Shown in pieces: positions 8,627-30,706 of a stretch of 30,815 nt of DNA. Positions within the stretch are counted from its first letter, which is position 1; every line of letters starts with the position of its first letter. The translations under genes were made by a program, and so were the position numbers. Source of the stretch: a virus; the UHGV virus genome UHGV-0021747. The stretch is one strand, 5' to 3'. The notes under the pieces are model-generated. The model searched no databases. It saw nothing but the letters and a program-made list of their open reading frames with translations, and had not been told where the DNA came from.

Positions 8627-8653
8627 AAGGGGCTTCCGCCCCTTTTATGTTTT
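8627..8653 (+). terminator. Rho-independent terminator after the coat gene
   Basis: Hairpin aaggggc-ttcc-gcccctt followed by ttatgtttt. Confidence 0.6.
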
Positions 8654-20934: not shown

Positions 20935-22113
20935 ATGGCTATAAGCGACACAAAACTGCGTACTATTTATGGTAAACCATATTCGGGCCCACAAGAAGTG
21001 GCTGATGCCGATGGCCTCAGCGTACGAATTTCACCGAAGGGGGTCATCCAGTTCCAGTACCGCTATCGCTGGCATGGCAAGCCTAATCGACTTGGGCTTG
21101 GTCGATACCCATCCCTGTCTTTGAAGGATGCCAGACAGATCACTGCTGACTTGCGAAAGCTCTATTTCTCAGGAACGGATCCACGCACCTATTTTGAAGA
21201 GAAGGTGGAGAACTCCATGACGGTCGCCCAGTGTCTCGACTACTGGTTCGACAACTACGTCTCTACAACTCTCAGAGAAAAGACCCAGGCACTTTACCGA
21301 TCAACGGTTATGAAGCGCATGCATGACGCCTTTCCTAATCGTCCGGCATCTTCTATCACGGTTAAGCAATGGGTTGACCTGCTTACCGAAGAAGAAAGAG
21401 ATAATCCACGCCGAGCAAGGCAGGTGCTAAGTCAACTAAGATCAGCAATAAGTTGGTGCATGCGGCGTCAGTTGATAGATAGTTGCGCAATTATGAGCAT
21501 CCAACCAAGGGACTTCGGCTCCCGCGCTGAGGTAGGGGATCGGGTACTGTCGTATCACGAACTGGCTAAGATTTGGCTTGCTATTGAAAGAAGCCGTGCG
21601 TCTACGTCAAATAAGCTCCTTCATCAGATGCTTATGCTGTGGGGGGCGAGGCTCTCAGAGCTTAGGCTGGCAACAAAGACAGAATTTGACCTGCTGGACA
21701 ACGTATGGACCGTACCGAAAGAGCATAGCAAGATGGGTAATGTTATCCGCCGTCCAATCTTCGAACAAATTAAGCCTTTTCTCGAAAAGGCCATGACAAC
21801 GTACAATGATGTTCTTTTCCCTGGAGAAGACATAAACAAACCGATCAGCATCGCTGCAGCCAACCGATTCGTAAATAGAATAAGGGGAGGGATGGATCTG
21901 GGTTACTGGCGAACACATGATTTCAGAAGAACGCTTGTTACACGTCTGTCCGAGATGAATGTCGAGCCTCATGTTACTGAGCGAATGCTCGGTCATGAAC
22001 TTGGCGGGATAATGTCCGTATACAATAAACACGACTGGATAGAGGCTCAGCGCAAAGCGTATGAGCTTCACGCTGATAAATTGTTCTGGCACATCAGGAG
22101 CATTTCTGATTAA
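20935..22113 (+). CDS. int: Tyrosine integrase (P4-like, N-terminal arm-binding domain)
   Basis: N-terminus ...DGLSVRISPKGVIQFQYRYRWHGKPNRLGLGRYPSLSLKDAR is the arm-type DNA-binding domain signature; C-terminus has HDFRRT...LGH...VYNKHDW catalytic motifs. Confidence 0.9.
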   Translation: MAISDTKLRTIYGKPYSGPQEVADADGLSVRISPKGVIQFQYRYRWHGKPNRLGLGRYPSLSLKDARQITADLRKLYFSGTDPRTYFEEKVENSMTVAQCLDYWFDNYVSTTLREKTQALYRSTVMKRMHDAFPNRPASSITVKQWVDLLTEEERDNPRRARQVLSQLRSAISWCMRRQLIDSCAIMSIQPRDFGSRAEVGDRVLSYHELAKIWLAIERSRASTSNKLLHQMLMLWGARLSELRLATKTEFDLLDNVWTVPKEHSKMGNVIRRPIFEQIKPFLEKAMTTYNDVLFPGEDINKPISIAAANRFVNRIRGGMDLGYWRTHDFRRTLVTRLSEMNVEPHVTERMLGHELGGIMSVYNKHDWIEAQRKAYELHADKLFWHIRSISD

Positions 22114-22285
22114 CGCCACCGTTAAGAATCCACCCTTCAACAGCTTCACGAAGGTATGATTTGGGGTGGGTTCTGACTGGCTTCGGAAATCCGTGTCGTT
22201 TGGTATAGTTCCAGATTGTCTGACGTGATGAAACACCGAGCTTGTTCATCACTTCTTTCTCAGGAATCAGGCTGGTATCGGTCAT
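22094..22285 (-). CDS. xis: AlpA-family excisionase / DNA-binding protein
   Basis: 63-aa protein with ...VSSRQTIWNYTKRHGFPKPV... resembling the AlpA helix-turn-helix; convergent with int and overlapping its 3' end by 20 bp. Confidence 0.65.
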   Translation of the reverse strand: MTDTSLIPEKEVMNKLGVSSRQTIWNYTKRHGFPKPVRTHPKSYLREAVEGWILNGGVNQKCS

Positions 22286-22362
22286 CTTAATTCTCCAGGC
22301 AAAAAGAAACCGCCATATAGCGGCCCTATCAGATATGTACAGGCCTCATCGAGTGTGAGGCG

Positions 22363-22707
22363 TTAGTCCTTGCGTAGCTCGCTGATTCTTCTGTAAGTCT
22401 CTGGTGCTTTGTTTCCGTGTATCTTCATTTCAGACTTCAACAGAGCAACGAGGGAATCCCATTCGTTGAGGATGCCTTTGAATGCCGGAACGCGCTTTGC
22501 AACCTTGTCGAATGAATCTCTGATTTCTGGAATCTGCTCAACAAGTGCCACGCATCGTCGGAAATCGGCTGCGTCATGTGGAGCACCGAAGCTATGACCA
22601 TAGATATTCTTTTTCAGGCCACATGCGATTGAGGCAAGAGTTGCGCTACTGATGCCGACATCGCCAGTCGATTGCCATTTCAAAACCTTCATAGCCAAAT
22701 CTGACAT
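22363..22707 (-). CDS. Hypothetical protein (114 aa)
   Basis: ATG with a GGAGA Shine-Dalgarno, preceded by two hairpin terminators; no family recognised. Confidence 0.55.
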   Translation of the reverse strand: MSDLAMKVLKWQSTGDVGISSATLASIACGLKKNIYGHSFGAPHDAADFRRCVALVEQIPEIRDSFDKVAKRVPAFKGILNEWDSLVALLKSEMKIHGNKAPETYRRISELRKD

Positions 22708-22718
22708 TTCTTGTCTCC

Positions 22719-22776
22719 ATAAAACAAAACTCGCCGTAGCGAGTTCAGATAAAAGAAAACCCGCACTCGGCGGGTT
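22719..22776 (-). terminator. Two tandem rho-independent terminator candidates on the minus strand
   Basis: Hairpin aacccgc-N5-gcgggtt then U-tract (22745..22776), and hairpin actcgc-cgta-gcgagt then U-tract (22719..22744), as read on the minus strand. Confidence 0.5.
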
Positions 22777-23077
22777 CGCATTCGTTCAAATTGCGCTTAC
22801 TTCTTGGCGTTCTGTTCATCCATCTCGATATACCATGGTTGCTTCCCTTGGGCAGGTTTAACGACTGCTCGCGATAGTATCTGACGCGCTCCATGAAATA
22901 CTCGCGTGAGTGCTCAGGTTGCTCTCGTGCTACCTGCTCAGTGATAACAGGTATGTTAAGGCGCTCTCTGTACGCCACGCCTGATGCTGCAAGGTCAACG
23001 TTTGCCTTGTTCTGTTTTTCTTTCGATTGCTCGGCGATGTTATGCCTGGCATTGTCAACCCGCCTCCTTCTGAACAT
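22745..23077 (-). CDS. Hypothetical protein (110 aa)
   Basis: ORF in early-left orientation; weak ribosome-binding site, and the 3' end overlaps the terminator hairpin. Confidence 0.35.
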   Translation of the reverse strand: MFRRRRVDNARHNIAEQSKEKQNKANVDLAASGVAYRERLNIPVITEQVAREQPEHSREYFMERVRYYREQSLNLPKGSNHGISRWMNRTPRSKRNLNECEPAECGFSFI

Positions 23078-28650: not shown

Positions 28651-28678
28651 GCCAAAAATAAAGGCCGACTATTCGGCC
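28651..28678 (-). terminator. Rho-independent terminator candidate (tL1 analogue) at the 3' end of the acidic gene
   Basis: Hairpin ggccga-ctat-tcggcc followed by uuuauuuuugg on the minus strand. Confidence 0.5.
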
Positions 28679-28992
28679 TTATCTACATTCCTGAACCAAA
28701 CGCAGATCGGACCGTCTTCTGTATCGTGAATCGAACCGACAAACCATCCTTCTCCATCTGGCATGCTTGGCTCCCATCCACTGATGTTTTGATTCCCATC
28801 TTCAAAATACGCGTCAATTACCGTTTGATTGTTGTCGTTTTCCATTTCAACAATTGATGATTCAATGCCATGCTGCTTGCAGAAAGATCTGAACTCATCA
28901 GCTGAAATTACCTCTCTATCCCCAAACAGGTTGGCGTATTCTGGGTGCGTCCAGTAGCCATCCTCGCTTCGCTCTACTACTAATGCTTCCAT
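28669..28992 (-). CDS. Acidic hypothetical protein (107 aa), immediately downstream of N
   Basis: GGTGAG Shine-Dalgarno overlaps the N stop, with an 8-bp intergenic gap. Strongly acidic (many D/E); no family recognised. Confidence 0.6.
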   Translation of the reverse strand: MEALVVERSEDGYWTHPEYANLFGDREVISADEFRSFCKQHGIESSIVEMENDNNQTVIDAYFEDGNQNISGWEPSMPDGEGWFVGSIHDTEDGPICVWFRNVDKAE

Positions 28993-29000
28993 ATCTCACC

Positions 29001-29327
29001 TCAAATAAGTGGTTTACTGCCTAATTTCATTTTCTGGCGACCAACACAAGTTACACCCATTTCACTGCGTGGCTTGCTGTACCATGTGCGCTGATTCTTG
29101 CGCTCAATACGTTGCAGGTTGCTTTCAATCTGTTCGTGGTATTCAGCCAGCACTGTAAGGTCTATCGGATTCAGTGCGCTTTCTACTCGTGATTTCGGTT
29201 TGCGATTCAGCGAGAGAATAGGGCGGTTAACTGGTTTTGCGCTTACCCCAACCAACAGGGGATTTGCTGCTTTCCATTGAGCCTGTTTCTCTGCGCGACG
29301 TTCGCGGCGGCGTGTTTGTGCATCCAT
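29001..29327 (-). CDS. N: Antitermination protein N (lambda-type)
   Basis: MDAQTRRRERRAEKQAQWKAANPLLVGVSAKPVNRPILSLNRKPKSRVESALNPIDLTVLAEYH.QIESNLQRIERKNQRTWYSKP reads as essentially lambda N. Start taken at the internal Met of the supplied ORF. Confidence 0.9.
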   Translation of the reverse strand: MDAQTRRRERRAEKQAQWKAANPLLVGVSAKPVNRPILSLNRKPKSRVESALNPIDLTVLAEYHEQIESNLQRIERKNQRTWYSKPRSEMGVTCVGRQKMKLGSKPLI

Positions 29328-29499
29328 CTGGATTCTCCTGTCAGTTAGCTTTGGTGGTGTGGTAGGTGGGAGACCCATTTCGACCTGCTTCGGCCGACTT
29401 CAATTCGGCAATAGTTCCGCAGGCCTCGCCGCTTTACGTGCGACATATTCCCATCCATGAACCCTTCACCACACCCCAAAGCCTTCTGCTTTGAATGCT

Positions 29500-29530
29500 G
29501 CCCTTCTTCAGGGCTTAATTTTTAAGAGCA
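29500..29530 (-). promoter_or_regulatory. nutL site: boxB GCCCTGAAGAAGGGC and boxA-like TGCTCTTAA
   Basis: Reverse complement of 29500..29514 is the lambda boxB hairpin exactly; boxA-like sequence at 29522..29530. Confidence 0.85.
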
Positions 29531-29671: not shown

Positions 29672-29697
29672 ATATAAAAAAGCCCGCTTTGCGGGCT
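29672..29697 (-). terminator. Rho-independent terminator ending the cI operon
   Basis: Hairpin agcccgc-aaa-gcgggct followed by uuuuuuaua on the minus strand. Confidence 0.6.
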
Positions 29698-29708
29698 GAA
29701 AGGAGATG

Positions 29709-30023
29709 TCAGAAGCTATTTGGATTGCTTGGCCATTGCGGCAATTTTGATTCTACTGGGGTGTGTTTGGGTTTGAGTCCGTTTAAGTAGTCAAGGCGCT
29801 CAATGGCGCATTTATACATAGCAATCTGCTCTGATGACATGTCGTCGTATGACATGCCTTTGAACTTTTTAATTATCGATTCTGCCTCATGTATAAGATG
29901 CTTCTTCCTCATGAGTTCAGCTGTATGCTTAGAGCTTACAGGAGATAACTTTGCCCATATGAAGCAGATGATTACAACAGCGACTACTATGCCGGGTATA
30001 AACATTTGCTGCTTTATCCTCAA
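29709..30023 (-). CDS. Small single-pass membrane protein (104 aa) translationally coupled to cI
   Basis: ATGA overlap with the cI stop. N-terminal hydrophobic helix IPGIVVAVVIICFIWAKL then a charged soluble domain. AT-rich; followed by the operon terminator. Confidence 0.6.
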   Translation of the reverse strand: MRIKQQMFIPGIVVAVVIICFIWAKLSPVSSKHTAELMRKKHLIHEAESIIKKFKGMSYDDMSSEQIAMYKCAIERLDYLNGLKPKHTPVESKLPQWPSNPNSF

Positions 30024-30706
30024 ACTTTTGGCAGATCGTCCTGGTCTACGTACCTGGTGTGTTTCACAATAGCTGAAACAAAATGCATTTTATCAACTTC
30101 TTCAACAGGAAGAGTGATTGGGCGGTGATCACTGTTTATGCTACTAAACTGATAATCACCGTCTCTTGTTTTGTTCATGATCTTTATCATGTTGTGACCG
30201 TCTTTGGTCCTTACAAAGACTTCATCACCTGGATGTACTGGCGTATTTGGTTCAATAACAACATATTCTCCTGACTGAATCCTTGGCCACATGCTGTCAC
30301 CCTTAACCTTCAGACCGTAAGCATCTTTATCGCCGCTGTAGATGCTTAACCAACCGGATCTGAATTCAATCATATCCACTGAGCCATCAACTCCCAAAAC
30401 GGCTTCACCAATTACCGGAACAAAACCCGCACGAACGTTACCCGCAAACTCAAGATGGTCCGTAGCTCCAGCTTTACCATCTGCAAGCATGTCCATCCAT
30501 CCGCGTGGGAGATTAAAAGATTTTTCAATTAGTTCCATCATATCGTCAGCAATGCGTTTTTTTCCGCTTTTTCCTTCCGGATACAGCATTCTGGAAACGT
30601 ATGATGGTTCCCTTTCTATTCGACGAGCCAACTCTGAGGCCTTTCCATTACAGAATCGGTCTCTTATCTCTATCAGCCTTAGTCGTCTTTGTTCGTATTT
30701 ATCCAT
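30020..30706 (-). CDS. cI: cI-type prophage repressor (N-terminal HTH plus S24 LexA-like autopeptidase domain)
   Basis: Ala-Gly cleavage-site candidate (GKAGAT), GDSMWP catalytic Ser motif and a downstream Lys (MIKIM); 228 aa. Confidence 0.9.
   Translation of the reverse strand: MDKYEQRRLRLIEIRDRFCNGKASELARRIEREPSYVSRMLYPEGKSGKKRIADDMMELIEKSFNLPRGWMDMLADGKAGATDHLEFAGNVRAGFVPVIGEAVLGVDGSVDMIEFRSGWLSIYSGDKDAYGLKVKGDSMWPRIQSGEYVVIEPNTPVHPGDEVFVRTKDGHNMIKIMNKTRDGDYQFSSINSDHRPITLPVEEVDKMHFVSAIVKHTRYVDQDDLPKV

Follow-up and report, generated by a model that had tools for sequence, protein, structure and literature searches.

A putative tandem terminator unit of lambdoid PL operons in front of ORF114 in an Sf6/P22-like phage genome

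The window, that is the whole stretch of 30,815 nucleotides of the virus genome UHGV-0021747, carries on its minus strand two consecutive hairpins with U tracts directly in front of a gene for a 114-aa protein. To judge from sequence comparison, they represent the window's version of a tandem Rho-independent terminator unit that is conserved in lambdoid PL operons. Both the terminator pair and the gene, ORF114, have their counterparts already annotated or predicted in classical lambdoid phages, and in this respect they are nothing new. The explanation that best covers all of the data, and which is probably correct, is that of a tL4-type terminator unit gated by the N antiterminator and used also as a joint between gene cassettes, with ORF114 as an accessory protein that has no part in integration.

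The window represents an Sf6/P22-like lambdoid phage with a complete early-left operon on the minus strand. The gene of a cI-like repressor (30020-30706, minus strand) is followed by a nutL site (29500..29530, minus strand) and by a lambda-type N antiterminator gene (29001..29327, minus strand), whose product shows 91% identity to lambda N and contains an identical arginine-rich motif. The boxB element of nutL, GCCCTGAAGAAGGGC, is identical to that of lambda, and two differences occur just upstream, in the segment that we take to be boxA from its placement in lambda nutL. An N orthologue and a nutL site are thus present downstream of PL, and the identity of boxB together with the close similarity of N makes N-gated read-through from PL the best reading of the operon. 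The assumption of N-dependent early-left transcription made in an earlier note on this DNA was therefore well founded. The operon further encodes, on the same strand, Erf, SSB, an endonuclease, an exonuclease and Ea22-like proteins, and a homologue of the theta subunit of DNA polymerase III (HolE/Hot-like; 22745..23077, minus strand), which was assigned by Pfam (PF06440, 2e-30) and by its PGAP name. The theta-like reading frame extends about 20-30 codons beyond the theta domain.

ORF114 itself (22363..22707, minus strand) corresponds to ORF114 of phage 434, to gp32 of HK022 and to the family phrog_1229, and encodes an all-helical protein of 114 aa. Right after its stop codon there is a small hairpin of 6 bp, GCCTCA-CACTCGA-TGAGGC (22343..22361, minus strand), devoid of a U tract; phage 434 (L215) and Salmonella prophages (L088) keep the same hairpin behind ORF114, with different sequences following it. 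A third hairpin with a U tract (22299..22326, minus strand; stem 22326-22307) abuts the ribosome-binding site of an AlpA/Xis-like ORF of 63 aa (22094..22285, minus strand), a putative excisionase which matched phrog_66 (1.9e-8) and whose homologue in mEp234 carries an annotation of similarity to the phi24B excisionase. The positional analogue of this third hairpin in phage 434 is the terminator t'-I, which has a different sequence. The tyrosine integrase gene (20935..22113, plus strand) converges on xis, with an overlap of 20 bp between the two genes, an inverted layout of the 2851/phi24B kind, so that read-through from PL beyond xis would be antisense to int, and vice versa. The module comprising int, xis and the adjoining ORF is about 98% identical to that of the Stx phages 1717, 2851 and Stx2a_F349 and of mEp234. 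The inverted layout was described for phi24B, in which int is likewise transcribed opposite to xis and escapes PL/CI control, xis stays under PL, and tight silencing of xis is thereby key to the stability of the prophage (PMC3064807). The int/xis genes of the window differ from those of phi24B in being of the 2851/sbcB type, and terminators are mentioned nowhere in the phi24B paper (PMC3064807; 0 occurrences).

The order of the elements on the minus strand is GAACCCGC-CGAGT-GCGGGTTT TCTTTTAT, then GAACTCGC-TACG-GCGAGTTT TGTTTTAT, then GGAGACAAGAA and the ATG of ORF114. Hairpin 1 with its U tract (22747..22777, minus strand) is a tL4-type intrinsic terminator with the stem variant GAACCCGC/GCGGGTTT; its stem (22777-22757) consists of 8 pairs closed by a loop of 5 nt (CGAGT), and the U tract reaches to about position 22748. 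Hairpin 2 with its U tract (22719..22746, minus strand) is the second terminator of the pair, with a stem (22746-22727) of 8 pairs, a loop of 4 nt (TACG) and a U tract which reaches to about 22721; the dinucleotide CT precedes its GAACTCGC arm. A terminator consensus scan picked up both hairpins as well as the third one before the xis-like ORF. Both stems contain 4-5 G-C pairs. The U tracts lying directly 3' of the stems are TTTTCTTTT and TTTTGTTTT, read on the minus strand, and are co-directional with N, erf, ORF114 and xis. The two structures thus have the features of intrinsic (Rho-independent) terminators, namely a G+C-rich stem of 5-14 bp, a loop of 3-8 nt and a U-rich tract. A bidirectional terminator was rejected, the plus strand having no T tracts after the hairpins. 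The Shine-Dalgarno sequence GGAG of ORF114 (22715..22718, minus strand) is followed by ACAAGAA and, 7 nt on, by the ATG at 22707; the U tract of hairpin 2 stops 2 nt ahead of the GGAG. Upstream, the theta-like ORF (22745-23077) runs through hairpin 1, which falls within its last 11 codons, and its TGA codon (22747-22745) shares bases with the beginning of hairpin 2.

RNA folding gave -12.4 kcal/mol and a z-score of -2.3 for hairpin 1, and -11.9 kcal/mol and a z-score of -5.1 for hairpin 2, for which none of 200 shuffled sequences folded equally well. In a strict scan, which demanded a stem of 7 bp including 4 or more G-C pairs, a loop of 3-8 nt and 7 or more T among the following 9 bases, seven distinct sites were found in the window, both hairpins among them, compared with 0.14 +/- 0.41 in first-order Markov simulations; a same-strand pair within 60 nt appeared in 0 of 200 such simulations. 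The scan, the simulations and the folding together confirm the pair as being far from chance, and the description of two hairpin and U-tract structures immediately before the ribosome-binding site of a 114-aa ORF, as first proposed, was accurate to within 1-2 bases. The remaining strong terminator-like sites of the strict scan are located at 478-496, 1904-1921 and 8627-8644 on the plus strand and at 28662-28679 and 29681-29697 on the minus strand. The two minus-strand sites lie on either side of the N region, and 29681-29697 comes after the cI-like gene.

The comparison with the classical lambdoid phages accounts for the identity of the pair. GenBank record M60848.1, 'Phage 434 integrase (int), excisionase (xis), ORF114, and ORF55 genes', lists in order terminator t-L4, ORF55, ORF114, terminator t'-I, xis and int, and hairpin 1 of the window occupies the same position as t-L4. 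In lambda the same hairpin pair, TAACAATCCTCGCACTCGCGGGGATTTATTTTATCTGAACTCGCTACGGCGGGTTTTGTTTTATGGAG, is found between ea8.5 and orf55. Bloch et al. in 2014 predicted the terminators of the lambda exo-xis region, among which t3-lambda and t4-lambda are these two sites and t5-lambda is a hairpin at the end of orf55 (PMC4195576, Table 4). The window shares with lambda and 434 the tandem layout, the TTTCTTTTATCTGAAC spacer, the TTTTGTTTTATGGAG junction and the location, distal in the PL operon and ahead of the xis-proximal cassettes. Hairpin 2 is one base apart from lambda t4, an A standing here for G so that a U-G pair becomes U-A, and this is the single mismatch to lambda over CTGAACTCGCTACGGCG(A/G)GTTTTGTTTTATGGAG, which spans hairpin 2, the spacer and the Shine-Dalgarno junction. 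Hairpin 1 is related to its counterpart in structure and in the TTTCTTTTAT tract but differs from the common AATCCTCGCACTCGCGGGGATT in both stem and loop: the stem of lambda and 434 is AATCCTCGC/GCGGGGATT, whereas that of the window is GAACCCGC/GCGGGTTT and is placed inside the upstream ORF. The downstream gene differs as well, since the pair precedes ORF55 in lambda and 434 and ORF114 in the window, from which ORF55 is absent and where hairpin 2 is joined straight to the ribosome-binding site of ORF114; the missing ORF55 cassette explains why the pair abuts ORF114 directly. This was seen by comparing 22719-22746 of the window with lambda 29118-29373 and with L215 330-560. ORF55 (lambda lambdap35) has been modelled, speculatively, as an RNA polymerase binder similar to T7 Gp2 (PMC8614690).

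A search with the hairpin pair alone retrieved 260 phage records, including 933W, Sf6, HK022, 434 and ST104, and hairpin 2 with the Shine-Dalgarno sequence was found on at least 120 viral contigs of IMG/VR. The gene following hairpin 2 was scored at 119 loci drawn from these contigs and belonged to at least six different genes: ORF55 at 76 loci, a gene of the ORF114 family at 24, a 99-aa gene at 9, a xis-like 81-aa gene at 4, a gene for a 46-aa hydrophobic peptide at 4 and other genes at 2. The occurrence of the pair before so many different genes makes its link to ORF114 incidental, and by this sequence evidence the tandem pair is a portable unit and not a regulator of ORF114. The arrangement is thus not special to this gene.

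Hairpin 1 accompanied hairpin 2 at roughly 90% of the scored loci and was represented by at least five different stem sequences, with the pairing and the TTTCTTTTAT U tract kept in all of them. Such compensatory changes argue for selection on the RNA structure. The hairpin 1 variant of the window recurs together with the theta-like gene at other loci. As the upstream ORF of most other phages stops short of hairpin 1, the reading of the window's ORF through the hairpin can be taken as a by-product of the variant linked to the theta-like gene. Hairpin 2, its U tract and the Shine-Dalgarno sequence were nearly invariant, also at Salmonella and Phytobacter loci, where ORF114 retains only about 60% protein identity and the synonymous sites are saturated. 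It could be that the conservation of hairpin 2 at the DNA level comes from recent recombination instead of selection.

At the loci with near-identical ORF114 copies a terminator hairpin abuts GGAGACAAGAAATG in 86 of 86 cases. About half of these 86 loci carry the tandem pair, as the window does; in the other half ORF55 is interposed and a single hairpin, AAGCCGCC-TGAT-GGCGGTTTTTT, is present, with the stop codon of ORF55 in its loop. No terminator was seen upstream of distant relatives of ORF114 at the loci examined. The homology of the window with phages 1717, 2851 and mEp234 breaks off inside hairpin 1, which indicates that the terminator junctions are also mosaic joints.

The protein left unrecognised in the earlier note is ORF114 of phage 434 (96% identity) or gp32 of HK022, annotated as 'N15 early protein homolog' (97%), with which it agrees in length, ribosome-binding site and place upstream of xis; it matched phrog_1229 over its full length (residues 1-114, E 1.9e-51). 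The surroundings differ in that 434 and HK022 are siphophages with a lambda-type int and the window is an Sf6-like podophage with a 2851-type inverted int/xis module and no ORF55. ORF114 is a real gene, as supported by its Shine-Dalgarno sequence, its dN/dS, a confident AlphaFold model and a large family. The dN/dS ratio was 0.15 against phage 434, and dN was 0.31-0.36 with dS saturated against Salmonella and Phytobacter. The AlphaFold model (pLDDT 93.5, pTM 0.86) contains seven helices. A profile search gave 2813 cluster representatives at E<=1e-3, 629 of them at E<=1e-10, and in 45 diverse members the residues W11, S20, P43, D45, D48, R51, C52 and W83 were invariant, within the motif P-x-D-P-x-D-F-x-R-C.

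The homology and structure searches suggested at the outset thus identified the 434, HK022 and phrog_1229 counterparts and yielded no match to a Pfam family or PDB entry: Pfam was searched with ORF114 singly and with the 45 diverse members, the PDB by sequence, by profile and with Foldseek (E<=0.001). NCBIfam and PADLOC contained no match to ORF114, and the hits in BFVD at E<=0.001 were exclusively phage proteins, unnamed or uncharacterised. The best-scoring homologues are named 'hypothetical', 'uncharacterised' or 'prophage protein', except for a few chimeric ORFs that bear the name of the fusion partner. Literature searches returned nothing on phrog_1229 or 'N15 early protein' and nothing relevant on 'ORF114' or 'tL4'. 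The annotation as a lipoprotein in AP012530.1 was rejected because the sequence SIAC29 is unlike the lipobox [LVI][ASTVI][GAS]C; Cys29 is replaced by Leu or Val in homologues, and the segment is confidently predicted to be a helix of a globular fold. Of 5426 complete E. coli genomes, 1675 (about 31%) matched the 511-bp segment 22290-22800, 629 of them with a match over at least 80% of its length; the annotation of ORF114 in these genomes is that of a hypothetical protein.

Among ten multi-domain relatives scanned with Pfam, only one informative fusion came to light. In P0168 (558 aa) a distant ORF114-family domain lies at the C-terminus of a CCA-adding enzyme/HD-domain protein that may in fact consist of two adjoining genes read as one, and in P0067 (333 aa) the domain is tandemly duplicated within one protein. 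The chimeric ORFs P0015, P0017, P0029, P0035 and P0063 of E. coli prophages combine a part of ORF114 with Erf, Ea22-like, Kil or PF04447 dATP/dGTP pyrophosphohydrolase sequences, the joint in P0015 lying at a short shared stretch, '...W...GIS...'. The frequency of chimeric ORFs shows that recombination often cuts through ORF114, which makes the protein dispensable. RdgC-like and exonuclease genes recur near the ORF114 homologues; these genes are common in early regions, and the neighbourhood is for this reason a weak lead.

The hairpins could also be regarded as a dedicated attenuator or leader controlling ORF114 in response to a signal, the alternative that had been raised in the earlier note. 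It would agree with the second U tract ending 2 nt before the Shine-Dalgarno sequence, which leaves no room for a promoter between terminator and gene, and with the overlap of the upstream stop codon with hairpin 2, which could couple termination to translation. The distribution largely refutes an ORF114-specific attenuator, however, as the same pair stands before at least six unrelated genes with ORF114 at just 24 of 119 scored loci, about half of the ORF114 copies carry the different single hairpin, distant family members have no terminator upstream, and the upstream ORF of most phages finishes before hairpin 1. Moreover, RNA folding of the region revealed no alternative antiterminator fold, the consensus scan found no promoter-like site on the minus strand between 22800 and 28000, and the comparison of the region with Rfam gave no family above threshold, the sub-threshold score for rsmX (25 bits against a cut-off of 56) being due to the hairpins themselves. 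Little chance is left to this alternative. Hardly more can be given to a post-transcriptional action of the hairpins, as processing sites or 3'-end stabilisers of segments of the PL transcript comparable to the sib/RNase III retroregulation of lambda int. The operon does contain several inter-cistron stem-loops, one of them, right after ORF114, having no U tract; against this, stems of 8 bp are too short for typical RNase III substrates, and the U tracts, which processing sites do not need, are conserved along with the stems.

Another possibility is that the hairpins are kept mainly as a recombination linker marking the boundary for cassette exchange among lambdoid phages, with termination being incidental or weak. 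Much of the mosaic evidence points in this direction, namely the end of homology with 1717, 2851 and mEp234 inside hairpin 1, the independent variation of upstream and downstream genes around an almost invariant island of 40 nt, and the absence of ORF55, which fits an exchange between TTTTATGGAGA and TTTTATTGGAGA. The compensatory changes in hairpin 1 with retention of its U tract speak instead for selection on RNA structure and not on DNA identity, and both hairpins have the full canonical anatomy of terminators oriented with the operon; a role mainly as linker is hence unlikely, and the linker and terminator functions are not mutually exclusive. As to the gene, ORF114 might belong to the integration/excision module, for instance as a co-factor or regulator of Xis or Int, since in enterobacterial lambdoid phages it is always directly upstream of xis. 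It accompanies, however, three unrelated int/xis types, adjoining lambda-type, P22-type and 2851-type integrases, and lambda itself is devoid of it. Homologues are present among the early genes of a Mu-like prophage of Vibrio and in other phage-like early gene clusters, as well as in PY54, Sashavirus, a 95-kb Enterobacter phage, SuMu, and Arthrobacter and Clavibacter phages, and thus also in transposable phages and in phages with no integrase nearby. The spread of the family over lambdoid, Mu-like and apparently lytic phages shows that it is not tied to integration or excision, and the truncated or chimeric copies common in E. coli prophages also speak against such a role, to which we attach a nearly negligible probability.

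The preferred reading, an N-gated terminator unit that doubles as a cassette joint, can be outlined as follows. The unit would separate the variable accessory genes of the ea/exo-xis region from the small cassettes that come last before xis. RNA polymerase without N modification, whether from PL transcripts that escaped N or from starts inside the accessory region, would stop at the pair; polymerase from PL modified by N at nutL would pass both the pair and the third terminator and transcribe ORF114 and xis as delayed-early genes. In this way the three terminators may prevent expression of ORF114, and of the excisionase in particular, as long as N is absent. As int is inverted and outside PL control, the directionality of recombination would depend on keeping Xis off, and the presence of three terminators before xis fits this requirement. 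Termination and N read-through at the lambda terminators tL1-tL3 have been demonstrated experimentally. These are likewise intrinsic terminators inside the PL operon of a phage with lambda N and nutL, and by analogy with them we infer the same behaviour for the pair, whose own counterparts, unlike tL1-tL3, are known from annotation and prediction. An insulating role of the pair would follow. A terminator in Tn916 offers a further analogy, and an analogy only: it is reported to insulate genes of the mobile element from premature expression (PMC11658703), with antitermination also described, in an element and a sequence unrelated to the window pair.

Two observations weigh on this outline. Translation of the theta-like ORF through hairpin 1, with its stop at hairpin 2, means that ribosomes could weaken both terminators, and the consensus scan predicted no internal promoter whose transcripts the pair would have to stop. 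The terminator-Shine-Dalgarno junctions would at the same time serve as recombination joints for the swapping of cassettes, and the layout of the window matches the product expected if TTTTATGGAGA, ahead of ORF55, recombined with TTTTATTGGAGA, ahead of ORF114. ORF114 would be a genuine, translated, non-essential accessory protein of the delayed-early class and not an integration factor. Our best guess is that it is a small binding or modulating protein which acts early on a host or phage target through its invariant W-S-P-D-D-R-C-W residues. It is tempting to go further and to propose that ORF114 founds a very large phage family, spread over lambdoid, N15/PY54-like, Mu-like, Vibrio, Arthrobacter and Clavibacter phages, with a fold absent from the PDB and a new biochemical activity residing in the W/S/P-x-D-P-x-D-F-x-R-C/W residues, the tL4 pair being an N-gated insulator and recombination joint; this extended proposal is put forward tentatively, as it is rather less probable than not. 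If it were true, the activity might lie, for example, in early host takeover, counter-defence or the modulation of DNA metabolism, the last in view of the RdgC-like and exonuclease genes that recur as neighbours.

As a discovery the finding carries little weight, since both elements have long been on record: decades ago the phage 434 annotation already included the terminators and the ORF, and in 2014 a prediction placed the terminators in lambda once more. What deserves attention is the function of the large ORF114 family, and a protein found in about 31% of complete E. coli genomes, belonging to a large family and having a confidently predicted but unmatched fold, is a reasonable target for functional studies of the 'dark matter' of phages. 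Hairpin 2, far more conserved than the genes around it, provides a clean example of a terminator-Shine-Dalgarno junction which also serves as a mosaic joint. Where the integrase of a phage is inverted, three stacked terminators before xis would be a plausible safeguard of prophage stability.
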